Positions 2,266 to 23,199 of a stretch of 64,000 nt of DNA are shown in pieces; the first letter of the stretch is position 1; each line of letters opens with the position of its first letter. The notes beneath the pieces were generated by a model. The model was not told the origin of the DNA and ran no database searches. It saw nothing but the letters and a program-made list of their open reading frames with translations. Position numbers and translations under genes: made by a program. Source of the stretch: Calditrichaceae bacterium. Lineage in GTDB: Bacteria > Calditrichota > Calditrichia > Calditrichales > JBFXGD01. Location: positions 103,861 through 167,860 of the forward strand of contig JBFXLE010000009.1 in the NCBI GenBank assembly GCA_050173015.1. Reading direction: 5' to 3'.

Positions 2266-2394
2266 ATGGGCAAGGCAATGAAAGAAAACGCAATGGGAGT
2301 AATATTGTCAGGAAATAGAAAGTTGGAGACTAAAAATAGCTAATATAGATGAATGTTTTGAGAAAATAAAAATAGATTCTAAAGAGAAAATATT

Positions 2395-3861: not shown

Positions 3862-3996
3862 GCCCATAACAATGCATATACTTTATGGCGGGTTCCGTTA
3901 TGAAAATGAGTATTTTAGTTTCAAATATAAATCAGTGTGGACAGAAAGATTTGTCTTCCAAAGTCCGCCACAAAGCATATGCTTCCCGTTATGCAC
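3862..3996 (+). repeat. attC-like site 1
   Basis: GCCCATAAC (reverse complement of GTTATGGGC at 2263); arms GCATATACTTTATGGCGG / CCGCCACAAAGCATATGC; GTT at 3988. Confidence 0.85.
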
Positions 3997-4019
3997 AAGC
4001 TAAAAAAAGAATATAGTTA

Positions 4020-4877
4020 ATGATTATAATAAATGACAAGTCAATAGAGAAACTCAGAGACCTGATAAATGAAGAAACTGAATATCGGTCAGGTCCGAAA
4101 CTCATCGAGTTTTTTAAAGACTTGGGCTTCAATGACTCTTATGGTCAAGGATTTCCTTCTCGTTGGAAATATACTGATGATCGCCTTCGCAAAATTAACG
4201 GTAAACCAGAATTAGATAAGTGCATCAGAAAATTATTCAATCCAGTTAATTTCATTGGCAAAACTTCTGAACTTGATAACCACATCAAAAATCTGAATCA
4301 ATATTTAGCTTTTGATAAATGGCAGGTAGTTCGTAATGGTACAGAAATAACTTTCAAAAAGAAAGATAAGGTTGAACTGCATGATGATTATGCAGAACTG
4401 AAAGCAGATGAATTTTTAGATAAAGAATTTGATGATATTTCAATAGATGCTCTAGGTCTTGATTCTATAGTTTCAGAAGTTCTCAAAATTCGTTTTGTAG
4501 AAATAAAGAATTGTTTTGCAGCAAAAGCACATTTGTCGGTCATTTTTCTTTCAGGCAGTAGTCTTGAAGGAATCCTACTAGGAATTGCTTTGAAGTCACC
4601 TACGGAATTCAACCAAGCTAAATCTGCACCTAAAGACAAGGAAGGCAAAGTCAAACAATTTCCTGATTGGACTTTGAGCCAACTAATTGACGTTACGTTT
4701 GAAGTTGGTCTCATCAAGGATGATGTGAAAAAATTTAGTCATGCTCTTCGAGACTTCAGAAACTACATTCACCCATATCAGCAAGTAAGCTCGGGATTTA
4801 ATCCTGATCACCATACAGCAAAAATTTGCTTTCAAGTATTGAAGGCAGGAGTATTTCAACTATCAAAAAACAAATAA
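4020..4877 (+). CDS. Putative abortive-infection protein (AbiJ-like N-terminus, C-terminal HEPN-like RxxxxH) (cassette 2)
   Basis: YRSGPKLIEFF..GFPSRW N-terminal motif; LRDFRNYIHP near the C-terminus. Confidence 0.6.
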   Translation: MIIINDKSIEKLRDLINEETEYRSGPKLIEFFKDLGFNDSYGQGFPSRWKYTDDRLRKINGKPELDKCIRKLFNPVNFIGKTSELDNHIKNLNQYLAFDKWQVVRNGTEITFKKKDKVELHDDYAELKADEFLDKEFDDISIDALGLDSIVSEVLKIRFVEIKNCFAAKAHLSVIFLSGSSLEGILLGIALKSPTEFNQAKSAPKDKEGKVKQFPDWTLSQLIDVTFEVGLIKDDVKKFSHALRDFRNYIHPYQQVSSGFNPDHHTAKICFQVLKAGVFQLSKNK

Positions 4878-5216
4878 ATGGATACTACACAATTTAAAAA
4901 CGGCTATTTCATTGAGAGAGTTTATCAACCAATCTCAGAAACTGAATTCAAGTGTCGACTAATAGTTAAATCAAAGGCGAATAATCAAGAAATTACAGGA
5001 ATAGAGACTAAAATAAATACCGTTGAGATTGGTCAGGGATTAGCAGACTCACAATTTAGCGTTAATCCAATAAGTTGGGAGAGATATTTGAACCAGACAA
5101 TTACAATGTTATTCAACATGTTGATGCTTCGTCTGAATATTACCGACTTGCATAATGTTGACGGAGAAGATAAAATTTCTGAATTCTTTGACGAAAATCC
5201 GTTTCACCAAAATTAA
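4878..5216 (+). CDS. Hypothetical protein (cassette 2)
   Basis: 112-aa ORF abutting the previous stop and ending just before attC-like site 2. Confidence 0.65.
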   Translation: MDTTQFKNGYFIERVYQPISETEFKCRLIVKSKANNQEITGIETKINTVEIGQGLADSQFSVNPISWERYLNQTITMLFNMLMLRLNITDLHNVDGEDKISEFFDENPFHQN

Positions 5217-5224
5217 AAAAGCCA

Positions 5225-5359
5225 GTGCCTAACATCGGCTATAGCAAATGCGGGCTAAAGTGCTATAATGAAAGTAATTACACATAATAAACCAACTGCT
5301 AGTCGGACAAGTAAGTACCTTGAAACCCCGCACTTTCCATAGCCATGACCGTTAGCTGC
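5225..5359 (+). repeat. attC-like site 2
   Basis: GTGCCTAAC (8/9 complementary to GTTATGCAC at 3988); arms GGCTATAGCAAATGCGGG / CCCGCACTTTCCATAGCC; GTT at 5351. Confidence 0.85.
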
Positions 5360-5397
5360 AAGGTTAAGAGCGATACTGCAAAATTGAAAATTAAGAA

Positions 5398-6282
5398 ATG
5401 ATTTTAGACTATTTAAATAAAACATTTAATAACAGAGAAATCGTATTGATTTCCTATTTGACAATTTTCATTATATGGACACTTACACAGAAAAATATTA
5501 GACAGTCCATAGTGTCTGTGATTAAAGCATTTATGGCATGGAAGATACTTGTTTCAATATTTGTGTTGTTACTATATATTGCATTGATTGCTTTTGGATT
5601 ATTTAAAATTGGACTTTGGGATAAATCCATGATTAAAGATACTGTTTATTGGACTTTTGGGGTCGGATTCATTATTATGATGAATTTTGACAAAGCATTG
5701 AAGGAAGAACACTATTTTAAGAACCTTGTCAAAGAAAATTTTAAAGTCCTTATAATCATTGAATTTATAGTTGGAATTTATGTTTTTGGTATCATCACTG
5801 AATTTATTTTAATGCCATTTGTGATTCTATTTTCAATGTTATTAGGATACACTGAAGTTTATAAAGAGCATGGACAAGTTCGCAAATTTTTAAATGGAAT
5901 CTTTGGCATCATAGGTACGATTTATTTAATTTATTCCGGTTATCATATTTACTCTGATTTTACTGGATTTGCAACTCTGGGGAATCTTAAAACATTTTTA
6001 TTCCCTTTAATAATGTTTGTTCTATTTTTACCATTTGCATATTCCTTTGCACTATTGGCTCATTACGAGAGCTTATTCGTTCGATTAGGTTTTTTCCTTA
6101 AAGACAAAAAATTGAGAAGATTCGCTAAGTGGAGAATATTATTGTCAGTAAATTTTAGCATTTTAAGATTAAAACGAATAACACCTGGAATGTTATTTAG
6201 TGACTGTTCTACTAGAGAAGATATAAAAAATGAGATAAAAAATAAAATAAACCCAGCAGCTAACACACAATATAGCCAATAA
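5398..6282 (+). CDS. Polytopic membrane protein of unknown function (cassette 3)
   Basis: About 7 hydrophobic segments; stop codon lies inside attC-like site 3. Confidence 0.75.
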   Translation: MILDYLNKTFNNREIVLISYLTIFIIWTLTQKNIRQSIVSVIKAFMAWKILVSIFVLLLYIALIAFGLFKIGLWDKSMIKDTVYWTFGVGFIIMMNFDKALKEEHYFKNLVKENFKVLIIIEFIVGIYVFGIITEFILMPFVILFSMLLGYTEVYKEHGQVRKFLNGIFGIIGTIYLIYSGYHIYSDFTGFATLGNLKTFLFPLIMFVLFLPFAYSFALLAHYESLFVRLGFFLKDKKLRRFAKWRILLSVNFSILRLKRITPGMLFSDCSTREDIKNEIKNKINPAANTQYSQ

Positions 6283-6394
6283 GGGTTTCAGTGGTATGCA
6301 AAGGGTTGTAGTGTAGCCCGCTCCAACTTTTCGTGTAACTTGATAGGAAATCACCCGCAATCCCTTACTGGCCATATTGTCAAGCGTTAGCTCC
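6256..6394 (+). repeat. attC-like site 3
   Basis: GCAGCTAAC is the reverse complement of GTTAGCTGC at 5351; arms CAATATAGCCAATAAGGG / CCCTTACTGGCCATATTG; GTT at 6386. Confidence 0.85.
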
Positions 6395-6451
6395 AAGGCT
6401 AAAAAATAGAAACAAAAAGAATAAAATATTTGCCAAAAGGATGAAAATAGA

Positions 6452-6630
6452 ACGCCGCCTATGCGGCGTTATTGTTTTGCGACGCGGTTGCTTGCGCAGG
6501 GTACGGATTTAAGATATATTCAGGAGTAGTTATGTCATATTAGTCCCGGGACGACTGAACTGCACACGTCTCAAATAAGTCAATTGATTGAATAAGGAAT
6601 TCTGTTGATGATATTTTTGAAAGGGATTAG
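6452..6630 (+). pseudogene. Tyrosine recombinase C-terminal remnant (copy 2)
   Basis: TPPMRRYCFATRLLAQGTDLRYIQE*LCHISPGTTEL..HVSNKSID*IRNSVDDIFERD*. Confidence 0.85.
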
Positions 6631-6646
6631 TTAATCGTAAAAAAAA

Positions 6647-6713
6647 TATATAAACAATTGTTCATATACCGCTGATTTGGGTGGATAAGAACAATAACAT
6701 ATACACGCACGTT
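6647..6713 (+). other. attI-like site 2
   Basis: Homologous to 2199-2265; GTT at 6711 opens cassette 4. Confidence 0.7.
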
Positions 6714-6735
6714 AGGTTGCATTAAAAAAGAAACC

Positions 6736-7984: not shown

Positions 7985-7985
7985 C

Positions 7986-8122
7986 GCAACCTAGCACGCA
8001 ATAAAAAACATAGGGCAGAAAGTGCAAAAATTGAACGACATAACATTTAATAAACGACTTGGTAACTTGACAGGGAAGTGCTTCGAAATGCCAAACGTTT
8101 CATATACGTAACCGATAGCGTT
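7986..8122 (+). repeat. attC-like site 4 (both cores mutated)
   Basis: GCAACCTAGC vs expected GCAACCTAAC; GATAGCGTT at 8114 vs expected GTTAGCGTT. Confidence 0.75.
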
Positions 8123-8200
8123 CATTGTAAGGAGACAAAACAACCGTCAGAATAATTATGGTATTTTTGCTGCATGAAGAAAAAAGAAAATATGGAAATA

Positions 8201-8290
8201 GCCACCGCACAAATGGCATATTTGGTTTTTGCCGACGCACAGCCAAACGCTGAAAAAACCAAAAGAGCCATTTCTTGCCATCTCACGACT
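8201..8290 (+). repeat. ACA/AGA internal-loop hairpin element E1
   Basis: AAATGGC-ATA-TTTGGTTTTT...AAAAACCAAA-AGA-GCCATTT. Confidence 0.7.
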
Positions 8291-8303
8291 GAAAGATAAT
8301 GAT

Positions 8304-11150
8304 ATGACAACATATAAAAATCAAAATCCTGAACAAATAGCCAGAGACAAAATTGACAAAATGTTAATTGAAGCTGGTTGGATTGTTCAATCTAAAAATG
8401 AAGTTGACTTGGGTGCAGGCAGAGGTGTTGCGTTGAGAGAATACCAAACGGAAACAAAATTTGCGGATTATGTGCTGTTTGTTGACAAAAACCCTGTTGG
8501 AATTATTGAGGCAAAAAAAGAAGACGAAGGACATAAACTAACCGTAGCGGAAGACCAAGCCTCTGAATATGCCAAAGCAAAACTAAAATATTTGGATAAC
8601 GACCCATTGCCTTTTGTTTTTGAGAGTACCGGAACAATAACCCGTTTTAGAGATACACGAGACCCAAAACCAAGAGGGCGACATATTTTTTGGTTTTACC
8701 GTCCCGAAACATTGGCGGAATGGCTACAAAAAGATAAAAGTTTAAGAGGTAGATTATTAGATATTCCGCAATTAAATGAGACTGGGCTTCGCCCTGCTCA
8801 AATTAAGGCGATTAATAACCTTGAACAATCTTTTAAAAAGAACAAGCCAAAAGCTTTAATACAAATGGCTACCGGAGCAGGTAAAACTTTTACTGCCTGT
8901 ACTTTTGTGTATCGCTTATTGGAACACGCCAAAGCCAAACGGATTTTATTTTTGGTTGACACCAAAAACTTAGGAGAACAAGCAGAACAGGAGTTTATGG
9001 CTTTTCAGCCCAACGACAGCAATCGCAAATTCACAGAATTGTATAATGTACAGCGTCTTACTTCAAGCTACATAGCAAGCGATAGTCAGGTTTGTATCTC
9101 TACCATTCAACGGATGTATGCCATTTTAAAAGGTGAAGAACTAGACGAAGGAGCCGAAGATACAAACCCGAACGAATCGACCTGGATGGAACAACAGCGA
9201 AATAAAAAACAGGCAATGCCTGTGGAATATTCTGCCAAAGTACCCATTGAACAATTCGATTTTATTGTAATTGATGAATGCCACCGCTCTATTTACAATC
9301 TTTGGAAACAAGTGTTGGATTATTTCGATGCTTTCCTTATCGGCTTAACTGCCACACCCGATAAGCGAACTTTTGGCTTTTTTGAGGAAAATGTAGTGAG
9401 CGAATATACCTATGAAGAATCTGTGTTGGATGGTGTAAATGTTCCTTACGATGTGTACAATATTGAAACTGAAATTTCGCAAAAAGGCAGTGTGATAAAA
9501 GCAGGTTGGTTTGTGGACAGACGAGATAAGCTCACCCGAAAAACGCGTTGGCAACAAGAAGATGAAGACACCGAATATTTGAAAAACGATTTGGATAAAA
9601 AGGTCGTTAATCCAAGCCAGATACGGAATATTATTCGCCAATACAAAAAAGCATTGGAAACCGAAATTTTCCCGAACAGAAAAGACGAAAATGGAGAATA
9701 CGAAGTTCCTAAAACACTGGTTTTTGCAAAAACTGACAGCCACGCGGATGATATAATCAAAATCATTCGTAAAGAATTTGACGAAGGCGATGATTTCTGC
9801 AAAAAACTGACTTATAAAATAAAAGAAGACCCAAAATCGGTGTTAAACCGTTTTCGGAATTCATATCATCCCCGCATTGCGGTTACGGTAGATATGATTG
9901 CAACGGGAACCGATGTAAAACCTTTGGAAGTGTTGTTGTTTATGCGTGATGTTAAAAGCACCAACTACTTTGAACAAATGAAGGGTAGAGGAACACGCAC
10001 CATTAACAAAGATGCTTTTCAGGCAAACAACACCAATGTAAAAGGGGCTTGCAAAACCCATTTTATTATTGTGGATGCAGTTGGCGTAACAAAGTCGAAG
10101 AAAACCGACAGCCGGCCTTTGGAACGCAAACCAACTGTAGCCTTAAAAGATTTATTGGGAGCGGTAACAATGGGAGTTACCGAAGAAGATTTGTTTCTTT
10201 CGCTTGCAAATCGTTTGATACGATTAGAAAAAGAAATTACCGACAAGGAAAAAGATAAATTACTGGAACATTCCAAAGGCAAAAATCTGAAACAAATCAG
10301 CAAAGAATTATTATCGGCTTTTGATAAAGATGAAATTGAAAACAGAGCACAGGAAAAAATTGAAAAATTCTGTAAAGACGCCCTACAGGGCGTCTCTTCT
10401 GCTGCCGATTTATCTCCGGCACAAATAGAATCTTTCCGACAGGACGCACAGAAAGAATTGATTAATACCGCCGCTTCTACTTTTAACGGAAAGCTGAACG
10501 ATTATATTGAAAAAGTGCGTATGGAACACGAGCAAATTATCGACAGCCACAATATCGACACCGTAACAAAATCGGAATGGGACACCGCTTCGGTGGATAA
10601 AGCCAAAGAAACTGTAAAAGATTTTAACGAATACCTCGAAGCCAATCAGGACGAGATAAAAGCATTGACCATTTTTTACAAACAACCCTACAACCGCCGA
10701 AACATTACCTTTAAAATGATTAAAGATGTGTTTGATAAACTGAAATTGGATAAACCCACCCTTGCCCCCGATTATGTTTGGGCGGCATACAGCCAATTGG
10801 AAGAGGTAAAAAGCAAACAACCGATTGACGAACTCACCGCGTTAATTTCGTTAATTCGCAGGGCTTGCGGAATTGACAGCGAGTTGAAAGCTTTTGATTC
10901 CACCATTGACGAAAATTTCAAAAACTGGATTTTCAAACAAAACGCAGGCAAGCACAACCGCTTTACAACCGAACAAATGGACTGGCTGCGAGAACTGAAA
11001 AATCACGTAGTAAATTCGTATCACATAGAAATTGAAGACCTCGATTATACACCCTTTGATGAAAAAGGAGGACGTGGCAAAATGTACCAACTCTTTGGTG
11101 CCGAAATGAACGATATTATTAATGAACTTAACGAGGTATTAGCAGCATAA
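8304..11150 (+). CDS. hsdR: Type I restriction endonuclease subunit R (EcoEI/EcoAI-like)
   Basis: ADYVL..IIEAK nuclease motif, MATGAGKT Walker A, DECH, TAT, QMKGRGTR; EcoEI-type C-terminus. ATG 8304 preferred over TTG 8229, which lies inside repeat E1. Confidence 0.92.
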   Translation: MTTYKNQNPEQIARDKIDKMLIEAGWIVQSKNEVDLGAGRGVALREYQTETKFADYVLFVDKNPVGIIEAKKEDEGHKLTVAEDQASEYAKAKLKYLDNDPLPFVFESTGTITRFRDTRDPKPRGRHIFWFYRPETLAEWLQKDKSLRGRLLDIPQLNETGLRPAQIKAINNLEQSFKKNKPKALIQMATGAGKTFTACTFVYRLLEHAKAKRILFLVDTKNLGEQAEQEFMAFQPNDSNRKFTELYNVQRLTSSYIASDSQVCISTIQRMYAILKGEELDEGAEDTNPNESTWMEQQRNKKQAMPVEYSAKVPIEQFDFIVIDECHRSIYNLWKQVLDYFDAFLIGLTATPDKRTFGFFEENVVSEYTYEESVLDGVNVPYDVYNIETEISQKGSVIKAGWFVDRRDKLTRKTRWQQEDEDTEYLKNDLDKKVVNPSQIRNIIRQYKKALETEIFPNRKDENGEYEVPKTLVFAKTDSHADDIIKIIRKEFDEGDDFCKKLTYKIKEDPKSVLNRFRNSYHPRIAVTVDMIATGTDVKPLEVLLFMRDVKSTNYFEQMKGRGTRTINKDAFQANNTNVKGACKTHFIIVDAVGVTKSKKTDSRPLERKPTVALKDLLGAVTMGVTEEDLFLSLANRLIRLEKEITDKEKDKLLEHSKGKNLKQISKELLSAFDKDEIENRAQEKIEKFCKDALQGVSSAADLSPAQIESFRQDAQKELINTAASTFNGKLNDYIEKVRMEHEQIIDSHNIDTVTKSEWDTASVDKAKETVKDFNEYLEANQDEIKALTIFYKQPYNRRNITFKMIKDVFDKLKLDKPTLAPDYVWAAYSQLEEVKSKQPIDELTALISLIRRACGIDSELKAFDSTIDENFKNWIFKQNAGKHNRFTTEQMDWLRELKNHVVNSYHIEIEDLDYTPFDEKGGRGKMYQLFGAEMNDIINELNEVLAA
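10372..10399 (+). repeat. REP-like palindrome inside hsdR
   Basis: GTAAAGACGCCCTACAGGGCGTCTCTTC, a variant of the GTAGAGACGCCC-n-GGGCGTCTCTAC palindrome. Confidence 0.65.
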
Positions 11151-12688
11151 TGAGAGAAGATTGGATTGACGTTGAATTAAAAGATGTTTGCCTAAGTTCA
11201 AAGGGAAAGAAACCAAGTGTTTTAGAAAAAAATAATTCTGAAACTGCTAATGTGCCATATATAAATATCAAAGCTTTTGAGAAAGGTATAATAGAAGAAT
11301 ACACTGATGGTGAAAAATGCAATTTATGTGAAGATGGTGACTTGTTAATGGTTTGGGATGGTGCAAGGGCTGGGCTTACAGGTAAAGCTAAAAAAGGTGC
11401 TGTTGGTTCAACACTAATGAGAATTGAAGAAGTAAAAGGTATTGAAAAGGAATATTTATATTATTTTCTTTTATCACTTTTTACAAAGATTAATACAAAT
11501 CCAAGAGGTGTTGGTATTCCACATGTTGAACCACGAATACTATGGTTGTCAAAAGTATTAATTGTTAGCAGTCCCATCCAACGAGCAATAGTATCCAAAA
11601 TCGAAGCCCTGTTTTCCGATTTGGACAACGGCATCGCCAATTTAAAAAAAGCACAGGAGCAATTAAAAATATACCGTCAAGCGGTTTTGAAAAAGGCCTT
11701 TGAGGGCGAACTCACAAAAGAATGGCGTGAAAAGATTGTACAGACGCCCAATTTGGGCGTATCAACGCCCCTGCCAACAGCCGAAGAACTGCTAAAACAA
11801 ATAAAAGAAGAACGCCAAAACCACTACAACCAACAAATTGAAGACTGGAAAAAAGCGGTTAAGGAATGGGAGAAAAATGGGAAAGTTGGGAAGAAGCCAA
11901 GTAAGCCTAAGCAGCAAAAAGAATTGCCACCTTTAAATGAGGAAGAATTGAATGAGCTGCCGAAATTGCCAAAGTCAATGGTATGGACACAACTTGGAAA
12001 TGTGGTTTGGTCTGTAAAAGATGGACCTCATTTTAGCCCTAAATATTCAAAAACTGGTATACCCTTTATCTCAGGTGGGAATATTAGACCAGAAAAAATT
12101 GACTTTGAAAAAGTAAAATATATTTCAGAAGAGCTTCATAAGGAACTAAGTCGAAGATGTAAACCACAATTAGATGACATTCTATACACCAAAGGCGGAA
12201 CAACTGGAATTGCAAAAGTTAATACATATAAATTTGATTTTAATGTTTGGGTGCATGTAGCAGTATTAAGACCAATCCAAATGATTTTACCATTATATTT
12301 ACAACATGTTTTAAATTCTTCTCATTGTTATAAACAATCGCAAGAATATACACATGGGGTTGGTAATCAAGATTTAGGTTTAACAAGAATGATTTTAATC
12401 ACACTGCCTATTTGTTGTAAAGAAGAACAAACCCAAATCGTCCAAGAAATAGAAAGCCGTTTATCGGTTTGCGACAAAGTAGAGCAAAGCATAACCGAAA
12501 GCCTTGAAAAAGCCGAAGCCCTTCGCCAAAGCATTCTTAAAAAAGCATTTGAGGGCAAATTATTAAGCGAAGCTGAAATAGAACAATGCAAAAAGGCAGC
12601 CGATTACGAACCTGCGGCAAAATTGTTGGAACGAATAAAACAGGAAAAAATAAATAAGGATAATAATAAAAAAACAAAATCAAAATAA
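11150..12688 (+). CDS. hsdS: Type I R-M specificity subunit
   Basis: Two TRDs with conserved PIQRAIVSKIEALF / EEQTQIVQEIES and SILKKAFEGKL regions. Confidence 0.92.
   Translation: MREDWIDVELKDVCLSSKGKKPSVLEKNNSETANVPYINIKAFEKGIIEEYTDGEKCNLCEDGDLLMVWDGARAGLTGKAKKGAVGSTLMRIEEVKGIEKEYLYYFLLSLFTKINTNPRGVGIPHVEPRILWLSKVLIVSSPIQRAIVSKIEALFSDLDNGIANLKKAQEQLKIYRQAVLKKAFEGELTKEWREKIVQTPNLGVSTPLPTAEELLKQIKEERQNHYNQQIEDWKKAVKEWEKNGKVGKKPSKPKQQKELPPLNEEELNELPKLPKSMVWTQLGNVVWSVKDGPHFSPKYSKTGIPFISGGNIRPEKIDFEKVKYISEELHKELSRRCKPQLDDILYTKGGTTGIAKVNTYKFDFNVWVHVAVLRPIQMILPLYLQHVLNSSHCYKQSQEYTHGVGNQDLGLTRMILITLPICCKEEQTQIVQEIESRLSVCDKVEQSITESLEKAEALRQSILKKAFEGKLLSEAEIEQCKKAADYEPAAKLLERIKQEKINKDNNKKTKSK
11738..11766 (+). 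repeat. REP-like palindrome inside hsdS
   Basis: GTACAGACGCCCAATTTGGGCGTATCAAC. Confidence 0.7.
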
Positions 12689-12739
12689 TTGTGAAACGCG
12701 TTGGACGTATTTGTCGCATTTGACGCGTTGGACGCATTG

Positions 12740-12768
12740 GTAGAGACGCCCAATTTGGGCGTCTCTAC
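12740..12768 (+). repeat. GTAG-family REP palindrome upstream of the transposase
   Basis: GTAGAGACGCCCAATTTGGGCGTCTCTAC, flanked by 9-bp and short tandem repeats. Confidence 0.85.
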
Positions 12769-12840
12769 GACGACGATCCCTACGATCCCGATCCCGACGA
12801 CGACAATATCGTTCACGTTCACAATAACGAAAACAAAAAT

Positions 12841-13452
12841 ATGCCCGATAAATTTCAAAACAAATACCGCATACCATCGGCACGATTGCAAACATGGGAT
12901 TATGGAAGCAATGGAACCTATTTTATAACCATTTGCACCCAAAACCGTGAACATTATTTTGGTGAAATTACAGACGGTAATATGATATTATCCGAAATAG
13001 GAATTTTGGCGAACAAATATTGGAATGAAATACCAGAACATTTTCCATTTGTCAATTTGGATGAATTTGTGGTAATGCCCAACCACGTGCATGGGATTAT
13101 TATCATTGATAAACCCGATGATGGACGGGATGATGGGCGGGACGTTGGACGGGACGTTGGACGGGACGTAGAGACGCCCAAATTGGGCGTCTCTACCAAT
13201 ACCAATACCAATACCAATACCAATCATCAAACCGCCACGGCATCCGAAAAATGGAAACCGGCATCATTGGGGGTAATTATCAACCAATATAAACGAATGG
13301 CAACCATTAAATCGCGTAAAATCCACGCTGATTTTGGTTGGCAATCCCGTTTTTACGACCAGATCATACGAAACAACGAATCGTATGAAAAAATCAGAAA
13401 TTATATTGTCAACAACCCATTGAAATGGGAAGAAGATAAATTTTACAATTAA
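12841..13452 (+). CDS. REP-associated tyrosine (HUH/Y1) transposase, RAYT-like
   Basis: YFITICT, VVMPNHVHGII (HUH), WQSRFYDQIIR, YIVNNP (catalytic Tyr). Confidence 0.9.
   Translation: MPDKFQNKYRIPSARLQTWDYGSNGTYFITICTQNREHYFGEITDGNMILSEIGILANKYWNEIPEHFPFVNLDEFVVMPNHVHGIIIIDKPDDGRDDGRDVGRDVGRDVETPKLGVSTNTNTNTNTNHQTATASEKWKPASLGVIINQYKRMATIKSRKIHADFGWQSRFYDQIIRNNESYEKIRNYIVNNPLKWEEDKFYN
13117..13224 (+). repeat. 12-bp tandem repeat x4 + REP palindrome (13168-13196) + ACCAAT x5, in frame within the transposase
   Basis: Encodes DDGRDDGRDVGRDVGRD-VETPKLGVST-NTNTNTNTN. Confidence 0.85.
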
Positions 13453-13467
13453 ATTGAAAGAAATAAT

Positions 13468-14988
13468 ATGTCAGAAAGTGCAATAGTATCAAAAGTGTGG
13501 AATTTCGCCAATGTTCTTAGAGACGATGGAGTGGGTTATGGTGATTATTTAGAGCAAATCACCTATTTGCTTTTCCTAAAAATGGCAGACGAACTTAACA
13601 AACCGCCCTACAATAAAGGTTTAAAATTTCCGAAACTCAAAAATGCTGAGGGTGTTGAATTGCCCGATGCCGAAACCTGCGACTGGCAAACGCTGTCGCA
13701 AAAACGTGGTTTGGAATTGGAAAATTTTTACAACCAAATGCTACGAAGTTTGGGAAGCGAAAAAGGAACGTTGGGGCAAATTTTCGTAAAAAGTCAAAAC
13801 AAAATACAAGACCCATCAAAACTCTTAAAAATCATTGATATGATTGATAAAGAGCAATGGAGCTTAATGGGAACCGATGTAAAAGGGAAAATTTACGAAG
13901 GTCTTTTAGAGAAAAATGCCGAAGACACCAAAAGCGGTGCAGGGCAATATTTTACGCCTCGTTCGCTCATCAAAACAATGGTGGCTTGTGTTCGTCCCAA
14001 ACCCATGAAAACCATTATAGACCCTGCTTGTGGCACTGGCGGTTTCTTTTTGGCAGCTTACGATTATATCAAAAGTCAGAATTTAGACCAGGAAGAAAAG
14101 GAGTTTTTGAAAAACAAAACTTTCTACGGAAACGAAATTGTAGCCAATACACGCAGAATGTGTTTGATGAACATGTTTTTGCACAACATTGGCGAAATTG
14201 ATGGCGAAACACTCATTTCTTCAGCTGATGCTTTGGTTTCGGACAATGGCATACGCTACGATTATGTGCTGGCAAATCCGCCTTTTGGTAAAAAAAGCAG
14301 TATGACCATTACCAACGAAGAGGGCAAACTGGAAAAGCAGGATTATACTATCAATCGTCAGGATTTTGTGGCTACCACAGCCAACAAGCAACTAAACTTT
14401 TTGCAACACATAAAAACGCTTTTAAAACTCACAGGCGAAGCAGCCGTTGTACTTCCCGATAATGTTTTGTTTGAGGGCGGAGCAGGCGAAACGGTTCGGA
14501 AAGAATTGATGAAAACAACCGAATTGCATACAATTTTAAGACTTCCAACAGGTATATTTTACGCACAAGGTGTAAAAGCAAATGTTTTGTTTTTCGACAA
14601 CAAACCAGCTTCAAAAGAGGCTTGGACAAAAGATGTTTGGATTTATGATTATCGAAGTAACATAAGCCACACATTAAAGAAAAACCCAATGCGATTTGAG
14701 CATCTACAGGAATTCGTAAAACTCTACAATCCCGAAAACCGAAATAAAAGAACAGAAACGTGGAGCGAAACAAATCCCGAAGGCAGATGGAGAAAGTATA
14801 GTTATGCTGAAATCATTGAACGAGATAAAACCAACTTGGATATATTTTGGATTAAAGACAAAAGCTTAACCGACTTAGATAATTTACCCGACCCCGATAT
14901 TTTGGCAAACGAAATCATTGAAAACATTGAAGCCGGATTAAATAGTTTTAAAGAAATAATGGAAACAATAAACGGAGATGAAAGCTAA
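13468..14988 (+). CDS. hsdM: Type I R-M N6-adenine methyltransferase subunit M
   Basis: GQYFTPR, DPACGTGGF and NPPF motifs. Confidence 0.95.
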   Translation: MSESAIVSKVWNFANVLRDDGVGYGDYLEQITYLLFLKMADELNKPPYNKGLKFPKLKNAEGVELPDAETCDWQTLSQKRGLELENFYNQMLRSLGSEKGTLGQIFVKSQNKIQDPSKLLKIIDMIDKEQWSLMGTDVKGKIYEGLLEKNAEDTKSGAGQYFTPRSLIKTMVACVRPKPMKTIIDPACGTGGFFLAAYDYIKSQNLDQEEKEFLKNKTFYGNEIVANTRRMCLMNMFLHNIGEIDGETLISSADALVSDNGIRYDYVLANPPFGKKSSMTITNEEGKLEKQDYTINRQDFVATTANKQLNFLQHIKTLLKLTGEAAVVLPDNVLFEGGAGETVRKELMKTTELHTILRLPTGIFYAQGVKANVLFFDNKPASKEAWTKDVWIYDYRSNISHTLKKNPMRFEHLQEFVKLYNPENRNKRTETWSETNPEGRWRKYSYAEIIERDKTNLDIFWIKDKSLTDLDNLPDPDILANEIIENIEAGLNSFKEIMETINGDES

Positions 14989-14989
14989 G

Positions 14990-15080
14990 CCCAGCCCAAA
15001 AACCATACACATTTGCAATTCGCGCGAGCCAACGCTTGACCAAAAATTGCAAAAGAGTATGTCTTGCCAACGCACGGACA
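14990..15080 (+). repeat. ACA/AGA hairpin element E2
   Basis: CATAC-ACA-TTTGCAATT...AATTGCAAA-AGA-GTATG. Confidence 0.7.
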
Positions 15081-15130
15081 GAGAATGCAGCAAAAATGAA
15101 AGATAAATTGGCTGGAAAAATAAACAACGA

Positions 15131-15263
15131 AACGCTAACACGCGGTATAAAACATTGGGGTTTAAGTATTTATTCGAGCGTTCTACCCCGCATCAAGTTC
15201 GGTGTAACTCGACAGGATAGTAGCCCGCAATCCCTTACGAGTCATACACTCAAAGTTAGTTCC
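15131..15263 (+). repeat. attC-like site 5
   Basis: AACGCTAAC is complementary to G(A)TAGCGTT at 8114; right arm resembles sites 3 and 7; GTT at 15255. Confidence 0.8.
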
Positions 15264-15320
15264 AAGCCTAAAAAATAGAAACAACAAGAATAAAATATTT
15301 GCCAAAAGGATGAAAATAGA

Positions 15321-15501
15321 ACGCCGCCTATGCGGCGTTATTGTTTTGCAACGCGGTTGCTTGCACAGGATAGGGATTTAAGGTATATTCAGGAGTAGTT
15401 AGGTCATAATCGTTCCGGGACTACTGAAATTTGCGCACATCTCAAAAAAGTCTATTGATAAAAACAGTAATCCTACGGATGATATCTTTGAAAGGGATTA
15501 G
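15321..15501 (+). pseudogene. Tyrosine recombinase C-terminal remnant (copy 3)
   Basis: TPPMRRYCFATRLLAQDRDLRYIQE*LGHNRSGTTEICAH...DDIFERD*. Confidence 0.85.
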
Positions 15502-15517
15502 ATAATTGTAAAAGAAA

Positions 15518-15584
15518 TATATAAACAATTGTTCATACACCGCCAATTTGGGCGGATAAGAACAATAGAATATATACGAACGTT
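15518..15584 (+). other. attI-like site 3
   Basis: TATATAAACAATTGTTCATACACCGCCAATTTGGGCGGATAAGAACAATAGAATATATACGAACGTT; GTT at 15582. Confidence 0.7.
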
Positions 15585-15624
15585 GTGTGGCATTAGAAGT
15601 AACTTACATAAAAAAGGGTGACTT

Positions 15625-16212
15625 ATGGAAATAAAATTTGATGTGGAAATACAAGATGAAGAGAAAGAACTTCTGAAAACGATATTACATTGTGATAATG
15701 ATGAAGACTTAAATAATCTCTTGAATAAATTAGGCCGTTCTTCATTTGAAGATATTAGAAGAATGACAATTGGACAAAAAGTATTTACTCGTGGAAGAGA
15801 TATTTTAGAATATCGGTTATTTAATTTAATAAAGTTTTTCTTCGATGGGAAAATACCAGACGAACAAAAAATATGTGATTTATTCCAAATAACGGCAACT
15901 GAAAGTCGAGCATTTATTCGCTCAATAATGTCAAAGTATCAATATGACTTAAAAGAAACAATATCTTCAACATTAAAAGAACAAGTAGAAAATATTCAAA
16001 AAGAAGAAAATGAAGAAGTTTATAAACTTTCCATTCAAAACCAGTATTTCAAAGATGAATTAAATAGAATATTAGGAACAATAGACACAAGTTTACCGAT
16101 TATTGAAAAAGAGCGGGGAACTATTTCTACTTATGTAATTCAAACATCATCTTACCAGAAGTTATGTGAACATTTTGGCATTGAACTAGAAGAAGAAAAC
16201 AATGAAAACTGA
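15625..16212 (+). CDS. Hypothetical soluble protein (cassette 6)
   Basis: 195-aa ORF; possible HTH-like segment IPDEQKICDLFQITATESRAFI. Confidence 0.7.
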   Translation: MEIKFDVEIQDEEKELLKTILHCDNDEDLNNLLNKLGRSSFEDIRRMTIGQKVFTRGRDILEYRLFNLIKFFFDGKIPDEQKICDLFQITATESRAFIRSIMSKYQYDLKETISSTLKEQVENIQKEENEEVYKLSIQNQYFKDELNRILGTIDTSLPIIEKERGTISTYVIQTSSYQKLCEHFGIELEEENNEN

Positions 16213-16621
16213 TTTACCTAATTTATTAACTGCATCAAGTATTCTATTGGGAATTATTACTGCATTATATGGTTTATTTTTTCCTGCGATTAATTCAATT
16301 TTAGTAATAAAATCTAAGCCCCATAAGGTTGATAATAAGAAGGCCTACAGTGAAAGCAAGGATATTATAAAAGCAAAATATATTCCATTATTAATTGGTT
16401 CGTTAGTAATTACATTGATAAACATACCAGAGCTGTTTTCTCAATTAAGAAATAGTTTTGTTGCAATAAAAACTAGTGGAATAGAGAACACAACATATGA
16501 TACGTTAACAGCATCATTTATTGTCGTTTGCCTTTTTATGATTTTCATTACGATAATGATGATAGCAACTGGTTTTAAGTTAAGAAAGAAAATAAAAGAA
16601 CTTAATCCAAATGAACAATAA
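16202..16621 (+). CDS. Three-TM membrane protein (cassette 6)
   Basis: Three hydrophobic helices; overlaps the upstream gene; stop lies immediately before the attC-like core. Confidence 0.7.
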   Translation: MKTDLPNLLTASSILLGIITALYGLFFPAINSILVIKSKPHKVDNKKAYSESKDIIKAKYIPLLIGSLVITLINIPELFSQLRNSFVAIKTSGIENTTYDTLTASFIVVCLFMIFITIMMIATGFKLRKKIKELNPNEQ

Positions 16622-16622
16622 C

Positions 16623-16759
16623 GCCACACAACAAAAAATATAGTGCATTTGGCAGATGGTGCTAAAAATGAAAATGATTGCAATAAATGAACATAGTAGT
16701 AAATTGAAAGCTTGGAGCGTTGAAATGCCAAACGCACCATATTCAAACCGTTGTATGCC
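16623..16759 (+). repeat. attC-like site 6
   Basis: GCCACACAAC is the reverse complement of GTTGTGTGGC at 15582; arms AATATAGTGCATTTGGCA / TGCCAAACGCACCATATT; GTT at 16750. Confidence 0.85.
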
Positions 16760-16777
16760 ATGCTGGAAACGAGCTAA

Positions 16778-16865
16778 CCGCACAAATAGCACATTTGGTT
16801 ATTGCTGACACAAAAGCAAAGGCTGAAAAACTAAAAGAGCTATTTTATTGTCAAACGCACATAGA
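16778..16865 (+). repeat. ACA/AGA hairpin element E3
   Basis: AAATAGC-ACA-TTTGGTT...AACTAAA-AGA-GCTATTT. Confidence 0.7.
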
Positions 16866-16877
16866 CTAAAACTAAAA

Positions 16878-19800: not shown

Positions 19801-22800
19801 TTTTAGTGGAGTTTGAACGAATGTTATGTATTACCACTCAAATTCTAGCCGAGGGCATTCTTCAAACACCAATGCCAGGTGATCCTATTAAAAGAGTATT
19901 TCCAATTGTTCGGTTTTATTACAAAGAAATATCCCACCGAAACAGCTATTGGTATAAGCTGACACAAGCAAAAGGCCAATATTATGATTTTTTGATTTCG
20001 GCGGTGTCTGAATTGGGTACTGAAAAATTAGAATTATTAGGAGATTATTTGTTCAGTGAGTTTAAGAATATTCCAAAATATTGGAGTACAAGTGTCCAGC
20101 GGAAAATCATTAAATCCCTCTTGAATAAAGGGTTTAATGCTAAAAAAGCAGTAATAAAGTTGAGATCCATAGAGGATTCCATGTTGGAAGGTCACGATAT
20201 AGATGGCCGTATAACCGAATGCTTGGCCCACTCAAAAGTATGGTTCATTTTAGGCAAGCTAGATGAAGGTGAAATATGGCTCAAACAGGCTATTCAAGAA
20301 TCTATTGGAGTAGGATATAGAAAAGATTATCAATTTAGTACATGGATTGAATGGTTAAGAAAAATAAACCATAAAGACCCATCAAAAGCTACTGAAAGAA
20401 TAAAGTGGTTCTTATCTCATTTAAAACATATTAAAGAAACCACGGAGGGAAGGGCTTATTGGAATGCTTCTGAAGAATTATTAGAAGTCGCATATGAACA
20501 CAATCTGGAAGATGGCTTAGAGCAGGCTATTTGGCAATTAAAGAACGATCTAATAGACTTTAAAGATTCAATTGCTCTTTTCATAAAATATTTTATGATA
20601 AAAACAAAAAGTAAAGAAGAGTTCAAAAGTATTGTTCAACTATATAGTGATTTATATCTGCTTCTTGCTGAATCTGCCAATTCTTCCCTGCTCAAATCTA
20701 TCTTAGAAAAAGGGCATGAAATTTTAAAAGAAGATTTTTTAGTAGAACATGCTCAAGCCATTATTTCGGCAATAGAAATTAAAGCTTACGAAGAAACCAG
20801 ACATTACTTACTATCTGAAATTGATAACTTCTATACATCAAAAGGGCTAAAAGCAGAAGACTATTATTCACGGTTTAATATACCGGCAAAAAGCGAAAGA
20901 AATAGTTCATCAACATCTTCTAACACATTGACTTTAAAGACAGATCATGAAAAGATTGATGAAAGTGAAGTACTAAAACGAGTTACAAATTTTGAAGATT
21001 TCAAAAAAATCATTCAAGAAGAAGATCAGGCAAATTCATTTTTTAATTGGTCAAAGGTTATAGATAAAATAGCTCCATTATTGTCTTCAAGTCAAATTGA
21101 AGAAATCACCAAACTGGCTAGAATAGGAAGGAGAGAGTCAGATTTCTATGCTAAATTAAGTGAGGCTGCCTTGGAGCTAGAAAACACAGAACTCGCAACT
21201 AGTTTAGCCAATAAAAGTATTGAGTTATCGAGCGAATCGGGGTGGGTAAAATATTATGATGGAGGAACAAGAATCAATGCATTTAATGCACTAAAACGAA
21301 TCAATCCTGCAATATCATCTAATAAGGCATTTGAAGTATTTGCTCATGATATAGTAACCAGTAATTATCCAAGTTCATATATCGAACATCTTGAAGACAT
21401 CGTTCCACTTTTAACAGAAAATTATGTTGAGGAAGAGCTTTGGCATGAAATATATGGTTACCTGCAAAGACTGATGTCGAATAGTAAACCGGTTGAGGAT
21501 TTACCTGTTCTTCCATCATTAAATCGTCCAATCATAGAAACCTTAGTCGATTATATGGTGTATTTATCACAGAGTCCCGTCTCAATAATAAAGGAGCAAT
21601 CTTTACAGCTATTGGCAAAATATATAAATCAAGATAATGACTATGCTTTGACTCAATTACTGAATGGACGTTTAGATGATTACTCAAGTATGAACGTGAT
21701 GATGAAATTAACTGCGTTCAACTCCCCCAAAGTCCATTTGCTTAAATCAAAGATCAATAGTTTAGCTATATCAAATGACTATCAATTAAGAGAAAGCTCA
21801 AAACAAATACTTTCCTCAATTCAAGAAGAAATTCCAACTCCCAAAAACATCGAATTATCTAAAGTATACTCTTTCCATATTCCAGAAACTGAAAAACCAG
21901 ATTTTAGAAAAGAGATTGACCCTTATTTCCCAGAAGTTGATACTAATGACCCCCGTGATCTGATACGACCATTTGAATTTTTAATCAAAATCTTATCTGA
22001 GGAGTCTGGGATTAATGAATCTAACCTTATATATAGAGCCTACTCGATCATGAAAGAAATTGGTCGAGAGGAGGAATGGTCCGTTGAGTATGAAAAAAAG
22101 CTTAGAAATCATTTAGAAGAAATTTACCTAAGATACTCTTACCCTAGACCAAGGGTAATTGCGGCTCGAAGAGCCATAATGCATGTCACCAATGAATTAA
22201 TAGATTCTGGAACAATTGATGATGAGCGAATTCAGAAACCTTTTATATCACATGATTATGCGGTTCTGTTTTTTAATGAAATAGCAAAACCTGAATTCAT
22301 TCAAACTATTAAAGAGAGAGATTTTGGAGGAGTTGGCAATGATTGGTTAGATCGAATAGGTGAATCAGAAAGATTAAACGAATCAATATTAGACTATAAT
22401 GATAACTTCAAGATTATTGCAGAATATAATCAAGTTAAAAATTTAGATTGGGGTTCTCCTACTGAAGAATACATGTACCAAATTGCGGTTAATGAGGAGT
22501 TGGATGAAGAAGATAATTACATTTTTGGCTCTGTTTTTCACCAATTAAGCAGTAACTATCATGATTTGAGAAGTGGTGGACATTTTATTGTTGTAGTCAG
22601 GGATCATAGATTTGACCAATTTGATCTGAAATCTAAGTGGATTGCAATTAACCCTGTTTTGGCTAGATACTTAGGATGGGAGCCTGAAACAACCAAATTA
22701 TTTGCTTGGAAAAACTCGCAAGGTGAATTGATGGCGGAATCAATTTATTGGTCAAATGGAAATATTAACATGACACCTCGTAAGGATGGAGAAGTCGGGG

Positions 22801-22949
22801 AAGGGTGGTTTGTTATTGTTTCCAAAGATGGATTAGAGAAGATAAAATCTATCGAGAAGAAATTGTTTCTGCAAAAGAAATTAACAAGATCTAAATTTGA
22901 AGATTCAGTTCTAATGAATAATCAAGCAATTAGTGTGACAAAAATTTGA
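16878..22949 (+). CDS. Large nuclease-STAND NTPase, Avs (AVAST)-like anti-phage protein (cassette 7)
   Basis: N-terminal GERAAMGGYxxQ..LDD..YQVK (Cap4/PD-(D/E)XK-like); GGPGSGKST Walker A; ILIDGLDH Walker B; long helical C-terminal region. ATG 16878 preferred. Confidence 0.75.
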   Translation: MNEEIVSASGERAAMGGYLPQFDEFAWFVYLNLINKKLEWIRIADSKAEKLDDIQYSTHSEIHAYQVKWTIADANISFANFTDLFPLITSSWKSLKTANPSKKIIPHLITNKPISSHDSLKVGDTKIGSFQDFVSEVWVKLKSNQSIDDKWKQVLEELKKSSKLNDSEFGEFIISFDFQPDYKQKQFSIGNIKYSKEDEDLQQISRYIVQKVASPKRVVEFTRQEIIKELGWSDRFKTIFNHELIVDRQRYQPIQSTIDLLNSKLEEHKNGYLFLLGGPGSGKSTLLNQWSKGLKTRIIRYYAFDFVNPSSHLNFYERGNATHLFFDLVFQLKEAGIYKRDILPYKDLLFLKDVFNEQLSAIGEDFVTNGQSTIILIDGLDHVPREYKSTTNSFLRELPLPSSLPNGVFIILGSQSYELEDIQQEIKTEFQKGNRTIQIDPLKKEEVYKYIDNLDTSIQLNGSQKLQIFEKSEGHPLYLSYLIEKINNADSINDTIESFEVIDGSIDNYYKKIWEPIQKEDSQIQFLGLIARINGLIKLQFIQEWDFQPSVLKSFREKARFLFNETEKTLSFFHNSFKQFLLHHTSLNYLTDEFDPTINVNYHSQLTDYYVKSEIEKSWKQNHHLFQAKQYDKFISEVTPNSITEQLLNFRPAEEIKQDAKLGVEIARQNKDINTLVRYLFSLAEIERRLFNIDPTSFIEELLYLNKYDLARDYLRTGNTLHCSESYAFKACRLFIESGHKSEGATLYNLAYPEIITDSGIHIDDSHRYEEIRDSLEEWIYTSPYFEATENIFSIIEKIQFSGSIRKNRFEEEESDLLLRLLSNLGYSLVDQNKWDDFNKVIEKIDSRSSRGRNSLFQLIKYAIEQCLDLKDSSRVNEYLSFLTTHFTKEKTKSIGKIFIADLVYKVTRDLNETYSWIKEVEQPSNVGKDQLGYDDSLDAFLPLIKLNKLLNLCGKGVSITSAIPSVAKGTDEEVLVEFERMLCITTQILAEGILQTPMPGDPIKRVFPIVRFYYKEISHRNSYWYKLTQAKGQYYDFLISAVSELGTEKLELLGDYLFSEFKNIPKYWSTSVQRKIIKSLLNKGFNAKKAVIKLRSIEDSMLEGHDIDGRITECLAHSKVWFILGKLDEGEIWLKQAIQESIGVGYRKDYQFSTWIEWLRKINHKDPSKATERIKWFLSHLKHIKETTEGRAYWNASEELLEVAYEHNLEDGLEQAIWQLKNDLIDFKDSIALFIKYFMIKTKSKEEFKSIVQLYSDLYLLLAESANSSLLKSILEKGHEILKEDFLVEHAQAIISAIEIKAYEETRHYLLSEIDNFYTSKGLKAEDYYSRFNIPAKSERNSSSTSSNTLTLKTDHEKIDESEVLKRVTNFEDFKKIIQEEDQANSFFNWSKVIDKIAPLLSSSQIEEITKLARIGRRESDFYAKLSEAALELENTELATSLANKSIELSSESGWVKYYDGGTRINAFNALKRINPAISSNKAFEVFAHDIVTSNYPSSYIEHLEDIVPLLTENYVEEELWHEIYGYLQRLMSNSKPVEDLPVLPSLNRPIIETLVDYMVYLSQSPVSIIKEQSLQLLAKYINQDNDYALTQLLNGRLDDYSSMNVMMKLTAFNSPKVHLLKSKINSLAISNDYQLRESSKQILSSIQEEIPTPKNIELSKVYSFHIPETEKPDFRKEIDPYFPEVDTNDPRDLIRPFEFLIKILSEESGINESNLIYRAYSIMKEIGREEEWSVEYEKKLRNHLEEIYLRYSYPRPRVIAARRAIMHVTNELIDSGTIDDERIQKPFISHDYAVLFFNEIAKPEFIQTIKERDFGGVGNDWLDRIGESERLNESILDYNDNFKIIAEYNQVKNLDWGSPTEEYMYQIAVNEELDEEDNYIFGSVFHQLSSNYHDLRSGGHFIVVVRDHRFDQFDLKSKWIAINPVLARYLGWEPETTKLFAWKNSQGELMAESIYWSNGNINMTPRKDGEVGEGWFVIVSKDGLEKIKSIEKKLFLQKKLTRSKFEDSVLMNNQAISVTKI

Positions 22950-22964
22950 CCATGAATCCAAACG

Positions 22965-23050
22965 CTCGCATCCATACACATTGGCAAATCGCACAGGACA
23001 GCCACACCAGCCAAAATTTGCCAAAGAGTATGGCTGCACCAACGCCGCCA
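22965..23050 (+). repeat. ACA/AGA hairpin element E4
   Basis: CCATAC-ACA-TTGGCAAAT...ATTTGCCAA-AGA-GTATGG. Confidence 0.7.
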
Positions 23051-23072
23051 GAAAAGAAAATGAAAAAGCACG

Positions 23073-23199
23073 GGCATACAACAATGTGTATAATTCATAA
23101 GGGTTTCAGCGGATTGCAAGCCGTATCACCCGCATCAAATTCGGGTGGTAACTTGATAAGTAAAAAGTTCGCAATCCCTTACGAATCATAGTTAGCTCC
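23073..23199 (+). repeat. attC-like site 7 (right spacer deleted)
   Basis: GGCATACAAC is the reverse complement of GTTGTATGCC at 16750; CATA directly abuts GTT at 23191 (8-9 nt spacer in the other sites). Confidence 0.8.

Follow-up and report, generated by a model that had tools for sequence, protein, structure and literature searches.

An array of attC-like hairpin sites with two fixed A.C positions and a candidate short integrase in a Calditrichaceae genome

Results

Architecture of the locus

A stretch of 64,000 nucleotides from a Calditrichaceae bacterium (order Calditrichales; assembly GCA_050173015.1, contig JBFXLE010000009.1, positions 103,861 to 167,860 of the forward strand), referred to below as the window, contains an array of seven hairpin sites resembling the attC recombination sites of integrons. 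Each site is about 130 nt long, and the array spans positions 3864-23197. The genes between the sites comprise defence systems and unknowns, including four small operons without a Pfam match, and the decayed 3' ends of a tyrosine recombinase gene, each followed by an attI-like junction, are interspersed among them (Table 1). The identity of the sites as attC-type is well supported, by their fold, by the phase of the cassettes and by their association with a short relative of the integron integrase IntI.

The sites are defined by a pattern in their arms. TATA-N4-AT...AC-N4-CATA is matched six times in the window, on the + strand only, compared with 0.31 matches expected by chance, and none of 100 shuffles of the window reaches a count of six. 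The remaining site, the decayed site 4, was recovered by a covariance model. The first-pass annotation of this DNA had described a left arm of YAAC-N6-TATA-N4-AT and a right arm of AC-N4-CATA-N8/9-GTT, and this layout holds in the six pattern matches with their flanks. Its other readings of the seven sites were reproduced as well: A stands opposite C at both positions flanking the N4 core in all seven, the cores are fully complementary in sites 1, 3, 4, 6 and 7 and partly so in sites 2 (3/4) and 5 (2/4), and AAC and GTT lie 115-121 nt apart in all sites but site 7, where the interval is 108 nt. Three details required refinement. Site 4 is indeed degenerate, with the decay lying mainly in its R boxes (AAC>AGC, GTT>GAT); site 7 lacks not only the spacer but also three outer stem bases; and the N6 and N8/9 segments, taken as spacers, each contribute three bases that pair and covary. 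The stem therefore has 18 positions, and the unpaired spacers are reduced to 3 nt on the left and 5-6 nt on the right. An Rfam scan of the window found a single tRNA and no family matching the sites.

Table 1. Coordinates of the sites, junctions, integrase remnants and cargo genes in the window, with the loci of the order that carry classical attC arrays
Feature	Position	Strand	Description
Decayed integrase 3' end, copy 1	1915..2199	+	Stop codons, catalytic H/R replaced; TIGR02249 match 1941-2093, 1 stop
attI-like junction 1	2200..2269	+	Inverted repeat, then ...ATATACGAAC GTT followed by ATGG; GTTATGG complementary to site 1 R'' at 7/7
Thoeris ThsB (TIR) and ThsA (Macro)	2395..3803	+	Cassette cargo
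Site 1 (attC-like)	3864..3994	+	R'' CCATAAC, core CTTT/AAAG, R' GTTATGC; end of Thoeris cassette; 108.4 bits, pattern (3877-3979) and fold
Site 2	5227..5357	+	R'' GCCTAAC, core GCAA/TTTC, R' GTTAGCT; pattern 5240-5341; 104.3 bits
Site 3	6258..6392	+	R'' AGCTAAC, core GCCA/TGGC, R' GTTAGCT; decayed integrase/attI module 2 next; pattern 6271-6376; 102.6 bits
Decayed integrase 3' end, copy 2	6393..6646	+	Starts directly after GTT of site 3
attI-like junction 2	6647..6717	+	...ACACGCAC GTT followed by AGGT; outer 4 nt match site 4 R'' (ACCT)
Site 4, decayed	7989..8120	+	R'' ACCTAGC, R' GATAGCG, core AAAC/GTTT; both A.C kept; 72.7 bits
hsdR, hsdS, hsdM (type I restriction-modification)	8229..14988	+	Cassette cargo; Y1-transposase-like open reading frame and palindromes inside
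Site 5	15133..15261	+	R'' CGCTAAC, core AAAC/GAGT, R' GTTAGTT; end of type I restriction-modification cassette; pattern 15146-15246; 104.8 bits
Decayed integrase 3' end, copy 3	15262..15516	+	Starts directly after GTT of site 5
attI-like junction 3	15517..15588	+	...ATATACGAAC GTT followed by GTGT; complementary to site 6 R'' (ACACAAC) at 7/7
Site 6	16626..16756	+	R'' ACACAAC, core GTGC/GCAC, R' GTTGTAT; pattern 16639-16741; 109.9 bits
NACHT-domain protein, 2033 aa	16848..22949	+	Cassette cargo
Site 7	23076..23197	+	R'' ATACAAC, core ATTC/GAAT; CATA abuts GTTAGCT; end of NACHT cassette; pattern 23089-23190; 90.8 bits
Canonical IntI with classical attC arrays	L109:11290-12800, 15228-19991; L113:394-8152		Other loci of the order

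Conserved hairpin design

A covariance model (R1) was built from the six intact sites of the window, one site from contig C5 of the same genome (G000) and one from a relative. It recovers 11 sites in the window's genome and has matches in 27 of the 39 genomes of the order; its 110 matches, less two reverse-strand echoes, amount to 108 sites with 106 unique arm pairs, hereafter the order set. A second, cross-phylum set holds 94 unique sites. The design consists of an R'' box of 7 nt (NNNYAAC), 3 nt of spacer, the 18-position stem, a loop of about 70 nt, the return strand of the stem, 5-6 nt of spacer and an R' box of 7 nt (GTTNNNN). AAC and GTT are retained in 99-102 of the 106 order-set sites, and site length is near-constant, at 129-133 nt in 90 of the 108, with minor classes near 60, 93 and 195 nt. 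A conserved motif (..CGMAAT) directly precedes the right arm, and consensus folding of both strands finds no conserved helix in the loop region.

Sixteen of the stem positions are Watson-Crick, and most of these covary: positions 2, 3, 8-11 and 14-18 each show three to four Watson-Crick pair types in the order set, while positions 4-6 and 13 are near-invariant (T-A in 102, A-T in 102, T-A in 87 and T-A in 100 of 106, respectively). The other two, positions 7 and 12, are the fixed A.C positions. Position 7 is A.C in 92 of the 106 order-set sites (G-C in 6 and A-T in 3) and in 83 of the 94 cross-phylum sites; position 12 is A.C in 104 of 106 (G-C in 1) and in 90 of 94. Their neighbours are less rigid, in that position 13 changes from T-A to G-C in 12 of the 94 cross-phylum sites, covarying while the adjacent A.C is unchanged, and position 6 flips from T-A to A-T in 11 of 106 order-set and 19 of 94 cross-phylum sites. 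That the single transition needed to pair position 12 hardly ever occurs argues strongly for selection, acting either on the lack of Watson-Crick pairing or on the identity of the two bases.

The same positions emerge from a search that makes no use of the model. A regular expression that left positions 7 and 12 free, and required the constant neighbours together with at least 10 of 12 Watson-Crick pairs elsewhere, returned 94 distinct candidates over 5.71 Mb (the genome and all fetched loci) and none in the reversed control. A.C occupies position 7 in 89 of these candidates and position 12 in 92, and the A.C code is not an artefact of the covariance model. The stem carries no indel in 86 of the 108 order-set sites, and the indels of the other 22 fall at scattered places; hence there are no conserved extrahelical bases, as the first-pass annotation had proposed. 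Two chimeric sites (L073:2898-3029 and L066:7682-7812, the latter on contig C5 of G000) have arms of different sequence types, which leaves the stem unpaired.

Selection on a folded form, which had been proposed from the seven sites, is borne out in both larger sets, where the covariation persists. For the order set, the test excluded the two A.C positions from the tested structure and included the two echo rows. In that set, 91.6% of cells are paired compared with 64.6% in shuffles, and with the partner slid the share falls to 27-40%, while the covariation score stands at 0.59 compared with 0.13; in the cross-phylum set the corresponding values are 94.1% compared with 62.8%, and 0.685 compared with 0.14. 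None of 500 shuffles is as high in any of these four comparisons, and the partner-slid control leaves 21-42% of cells paired over both sets together. Covariation is seen in 15 of the 16 stem pairs tested.

On the bottom strand the two fixed positions become G.T pairs, as had been pointed out. Folding with DNA parameters favours the bottom strand in all six intact window sites and in 73 of the 108 order-set sites (means of -14.77 and -13.49 kcal/mol; Wilcoxon p 2e-7), so that the anticipated difference between the strands is present but small, at about 1.3 kcal/mol on average. The alifold consensus energy of 154 unique sites is -8.96 for the bottom strand and -5.16 for the top. When both A.C positions are paired in silico, both strands reach about -20.5 kcal/mol; the two positions thus cost 6-7 kcal/mol and account for the modest asymmetry. 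The conserved difference between the spacers (3 nt and 5-6 nt) is a second strand-asymmetric feature, which the first-pass annotation had not weighed.

Recombination signatures and the associated integrase

In integrons the crossover falls between the G and the TT of GTT, so the bases that follow GTT belong to the next cassette and pair with the R'' box of that cassette's own site. Of 40 consecutive site pairs in the order set, 18 show full complementarity between the 4 nt that follow GTT and the next R'', and 2 show it with the site's own R''. In the cross-phylum set the next R'' is matched in 41 of 64 pairs and the own R'' in 3 of 64; random pairs match in 2.4% of cases in the order set and in 2.4-3.4% across both sets. 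Within the window the chain is in phase at 4/4 from junction 1 to site 1, site 2 to 3, junction 2 to site 4, site 4 to 5, junction 3 to site 6 and site 6 to 7, and matches at 3/4 from site 1 to 2; six of the seven cassettes are in phase, the attI junctions being counted. As in integrons, each cassette is a circular permutation opened at GTT or beside it, and it is this phase rule that substantiates the attC-like behaviour first proposed for the sites.

The first cassettes are in phase with the attI junction beside the integrase. The attI region is conserved across phyla as an inverted repeat followed by TACACAWWCGTT, and its terminal GTT plus 4 nt is complementary to the R'' of the first site at 7/7 in the intact platforms of genomes G025 and G031. 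Behind decayed remnants the junction agrees at 7/7 on contig C5 of G000 and in modules 1 and 3 of the window, and at the outer 4/4 in module 2.

These modules correspond to repeats of about 340 nt at 1938-2279, 6386-6727 and 15255-15598, which are decayed tyrosine recombinase 3' ends joined to the conserved junction ending in GTT. The window thus holds three modules of integrase 3' end and attI (1915-2269, 6386-6717 and 15255-15588) and a 72-nt stub of a fourth (23191-23257). Modules 2 and 3 and the stub each start at an attC R' box (GTTAGCT or GTTAGTT), as if the module had turned cassette-like. On contig C43 of G000 (3100-3500, minus strand), tandem repeats of about 90 nt (GGAGGGGAAGGTCAC...) lie upstream of another decayed integrase/attI remnant. 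A search for the module in two genomes of the family gave matches only in G000, which encodes XerD and a XerC-like gene and holds five decayed copies of the short integrase; neither an intact short integrase nor a canonical IntI was found in this genome. With the integrase surviving only as decayed copies, and with one dead site, the array is a fossil.

An intact counterpart exists in a relative, whose gene of 278 aa is 82% identical over the remnant and co-oriented with the cassettes; the gene is followed by the same junction, a cassette starting TTAGGG and a site with R'' CCCTAAC. A second subtype of the short integrase has a divergent orientation relative to its cassettes; its open frames span 281-303 aa (some 280-295 aa counted from the first Met), and it is present, in phase, in a closed one-contig genome and elsewhere. 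On the IntI model TIGR02249, five short integrases match in two stretches at 198-222 bits, under the cut-off of 265, while a canonical IntI of the same order matches in one stretch at 466.6 bits. Aligned with IntI4 (PDB 2a3v), residues 9-180 and 201-274 of a short integrase face residues 10-181 and 245-318; at the IntI-specific insertion, 20 residues (181-200) face 63 of the chain (182-244), some 43 residues being missing. The additional domain of IntI (the I2 helix) is thus absent from the short integrases, and the predicted cognate enzyme has 278-298 aa.

The short integrases score 186-209 bits on the XerC and XerD models, under cut-offs of 330-335, and pass the XerA model NF040815 at 222-240 bits. 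The host XerD, at 236 bits, passes it too, and this model therefore does not discriminate. XerD (367 bits) and the XerC-like gene are separate from the short integrase. Dimer resolution of the Xer/dif kind was ruled out on the basis of the scores under the XerC/XerD cut-offs, the separate host Xer genes and the arrangement of 130-nt hairpins in arrays. A 31-row tree unites canonical IntI with the divergent short subtype (support 91/96) in a group that lies within the co-oriented short type. The tree is rooted on a single long Xer-like branch and therefore gives no direction of evolution.

Canonical IntI (TIGR02249, 380-479 bits) is encoded in 20 of the 39 genomes of the order. The R1 model found no site in eight canonical IntI loci (104,425 bases), and the use of R1-type sites by canonical IntI arrays was rejected on this ground. 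Two of the eight loci hold classical attC arrays, with spacers of 5 and 5 nt and two to three single-base bulges on one arm. Twelve genomes with R1 sites have no canonical IntI, one of them being the closed one-contig genome, which carries an intact short-integrase platform. Bulges therefore accompany I2, and fixed A.C/G.T pairs without bulges occur where I2 is absent, which indicates that site design and integrase design go together. Canonical IntI and classical attC lie at separate loci, and two integron types coexist in one bacterial order.

Distribution and cassette cargo

The 278-aa integrase has 7,952 relatives at E<=1e-40 among 7,999 candidates scored, and the best 120, from several phyla, are 74-90% identical to it. 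With one genome taken per species, 531 stretches encode a relative, of which 80 loci were kept and 79 searched, the query's own record being left out. R1 gives 99 matches in 32 of these loci. On the integrase strand there are 96, of which 94 lie downstream of the integrase, and the other three are reverse-strand echoes of sites already counted. Sites occur in 29 of the 39 loci with at least 2 kb of downstream sequence and in none of the 23 with less than 500 bp. The flanks of eight further short-integrase loci yielded one truncated site; four of these (G030:C340, G004:C168, G025:C89 and G002:C37) are uninformative, since their contigs stop 28-123 bp upstream of the gene, on the side expected to hold a divergent array. 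Intact integrase-attI-array platforms are present in relatives and in several phyla.

Some members of this family of sites have themselves been targets of insertion. In a Maribellus locus (L169:10850-12729), a group II intron (RF01999 at 10903-11024 and RF00029 at 12654-12729) is inserted in such a site, and the same junction is found in a Prolixibacteraceae locus (L160:2445-2543); the insertion is on the cassette strand and directly follows the CTTA in the right arm, a parallel to the group II introns that target attC in classical integrons. The truncation point of site 7 in the window (23190/23191, after CATA) coincides with this insertion point.

Two kinds of repeat accompany the cargo of the window. 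Perfect 29-nt palindromes (11738-11766, 12740-12768 and 13168-13196) flank the Y1-transposase-like open reading frame (12841-13452), and the core of these palindromes, CGCCCAATTTGGGCG, is similar to the attI inverted-repeat loop, CCGCCAATTTGGGCGG. Two copies of a 54-nt repeat (83% identical; 8204-8257 and 16777-16830) immediately precede the TTG start codons of hsdR and the NACHT gene and form a leader shared by the two largest cassettes.

Discussion

The seven sites are probably attC-type sites of an integron-like cassette system, served by an IntI-related short integrase that lacks I2, in which the G.T pairs would act as landmarks. By homology with attC, the bottom strand would be the one that folds; integrase monomers would bind the R box and the sequence-conserved L box (5'-GTATATG / TATATAC-3' on the bottom strand), and strand exchange would take place in the R box. 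Selection would most likely have kept the two G.T wobbles as landmarks, non-Watson-Crick points within the L box and immediately outside it, which may take the place of classical extrahelical bases where the enzyme has no I2 helix to contact them. The wobbles and the asymmetric spacer would jointly favour reaction of the bottom strand, and the wobbles may also hold the stability of the hairpin about 6-7 kcal/mol below that of a perfect stem. On the analogy of attC, it is plausible that the mismatches serve as the signal for strand choice.

Several observations weigh against this interpretation. In locus L201, a Paludibacter record, two sites (10203-10335 and 11264-11396) are Watson-Crick at both positions (G-C at 7, T-A at 12); this lineage may have lost the A.C code, and, together with the 9 of 106 order-set sites that have G-C or A-T at position 7, it indicates that the mismatches are not indispensable everywhere. 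The energy bias to the bottom strand is small (a mean of -1.28 kcal/mol), and the top strand is the stabler in 32 of 108 sites. Wobbles at variable positions are more frequent on the bottom strand than on the top, by 59 to 27 in the order set and 26 to 11 in the cross-phylum set, and the excess is weak when position 1 is left aside (43 to 26, p=0.05, and 18 to 11, p=0.26); as the sites are related, these counts are not independent and can only be suggestive. The reacting strand and the place of cleavage are assigned by analogy with attC, and the loci examined were fetched through matches to the model or to the integrase. In addition, the near-invariance of positions 4-6 and 13 means that the A and the C could be base-specific contacts and not a mismatch.

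This last point leads to a competing explanation, which is somewhat unlikely and yet deserves serious consideration: the sites are the same, the fixed A and C are contacts of the integrase with particular bases of the L box, their failure to pair is a by-product, and the strand is chosen by the asymmetric spacer. The near-invariant neighbours, the conserved spacer asymmetry and the small energy bias contributed by the two positions all agree with it, and classical attC offers a precedent, in which an extrahelical G sets the choice of strand and the spacer can impose polarity once the extrahelical bases are deleted, according to the available portions of that study (PMC2727003). Paired changes at positions 6 and 13, the latter made while the adjacent A.C stays, indicate on the other hand that the L box tolerates paired changes, yet the transition needed for pairing at position 12 is all but missing (one G-C in 106).

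Two further explanations dispense with the short integrase. The array could be an ordinary cluster of attC sites lacking integrases (CALIN), its cassettes moved by canonical IntI and the short integrase being unrelated; canonical IntI is indeed present in about half of the order (20/39), and for a cultured member of the group an IntegronFinder run lists only a CALIN (PMC10295459, Table 1, in the part of the paper available). This is improbable in view of the eight canonical loci, which lack such sites and carry bulged classical attC, of the 12 genomes that have the sites and no canonical IntI, the closed one included, and of the attI junction of the short integrase, which is in phase with the first cassette in two intact platforms and four decayed remnants. 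Alternatively, since every site follows a gene or operon, the hairpins could act as RNA (terminators, mRNA stabilisers or antisense RNAs), or, given the Y1_Tnp-like open reading frame with its palindromes, they could be elements of the repetitive extragenic palindromic (REP) type moved by that gene. Such a role is highly improbable: the strand with the A.C mismatches is the sense strand, whose fold is the weaker of the two; the 29-nt palindromes next to the Y1 gene belong to another family; the sites match no Rfam family; and neither cassette phase nor linkage to a tyrosine recombinase is expected of RNA elements.

If the G.T pairs are landmarks, a wider proposal may be put forward tentatively, as possible and more doubtful than the reading of the window itself. 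The window's system could belong to a large sister lineage of integrons, spread over Calditrichota, Bacteroidota, Ignavibacteriota, Campylobacterota, Spirochaetota and other phyla, which would capture genes through folded single strands without I2 and use the G.T landmarks to position the integrase and choose the strand. Should this hold, hairpin recombination would pre-date, or be independent of, the acquisition of I2, which is held to be the founding innovation of integrons, and the lineage would supply the "missing intermediates". According to the available portions of Escudero et al. (PMC7790495; PMC4792948), it was the acquisition of I2 that conferred single-strand recombination on integrases, and the intermediates are lacking; the I2 helix reads the extrahelical bases in current accounts (same sources). 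A natural and widespread family with neither I2 nor extrahelical bases, and with a strict code of two mismatches in its hairpins, makes the link between I2, the extrahelical base and the choice of strand directly testable.

The system also bears on the known distribution of integrons. In the part of the IntegronFinder 2.0 study available (PMC9024848), almost no complete integrons are reported from Bacteroidetes, and a short-integrase system would explain why integron finders return few or none from Bacteroidota. As the arrays carry Thoeris, type I restriction-modification and NACHT genes, defence genes carried on cassettes may also occur in phyla regarded as nearly free of integrons. No description of the site code or of the system was found in the literature outside subscription journals and supplements.

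Relation to known systems

The closest likeness is with the classical integron. The sites share with classical attC (VCR, attCaadA7) the inverse cores R''..AAC and GTT..R' (RYYYAAC and GTTRRRY in the integron definition), an imperfect palindrome and the succession of R box, spacer, L box and terminal loop; the cassettes share the boundary at GTT, which assigns the distal R' to the following cassette, an attI beside the integrase, cargo upstream of each site and defence genes among the cargo. In contrast to classical attC, sites of the window type have no conserved extrahelical bases, and their stem positions 7 and 12 are A.C (G.T when read on the bottom strand). Their spacers are of 3 nt and 5-6 nt, as opposed to 5 and 5 in the classical sites of the order, their L box is conserved in sequence, their length is near-constant, and their integrase is without the I2 insertion.

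Integrons of the Treponema denticola type, termed "reverse" or "inverted", are co-oriented with their cassettes and have a canonical IntI with the additional domain. They resemble the intact relative of the window's system in the co-orientation of integrase and cassettes and in the location of attI downstream of the 3' end of the gene, an arrangement that 94 of the 96 cross-phylum sites share. They differ from it in that the additional domain is absent here, and in that the second short subtype is divergent from its cassettes.

Among simple tyrosine recombinases, Smyshlyaev et al. (2021; PMC8138268) describe an "integron-like" subgroup in which the IntI insertion is "not fully conserved". The short integrases are like this subgroup in that IntI and XerA are their best-scoring models and that they fall with canonical IntI in the tree; the available portions of that paper describe no sites, attI or cassette arrays for subgroup members that lack the insertion. 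A folded single-stranded hairpin is likewise the substrate of a tyrosine recombinase without I2 in the CTX-phi type of integrative mobile element exploiting Xer, the single-stranded type (ss-IMEX), as discussed in the available part of PMC7790495. There, a single phage genome hijacks the host XerC/XerD at dif, whereas the system of the window and its relatives has a dedicated integrase, an attI and arrays of cassettes.

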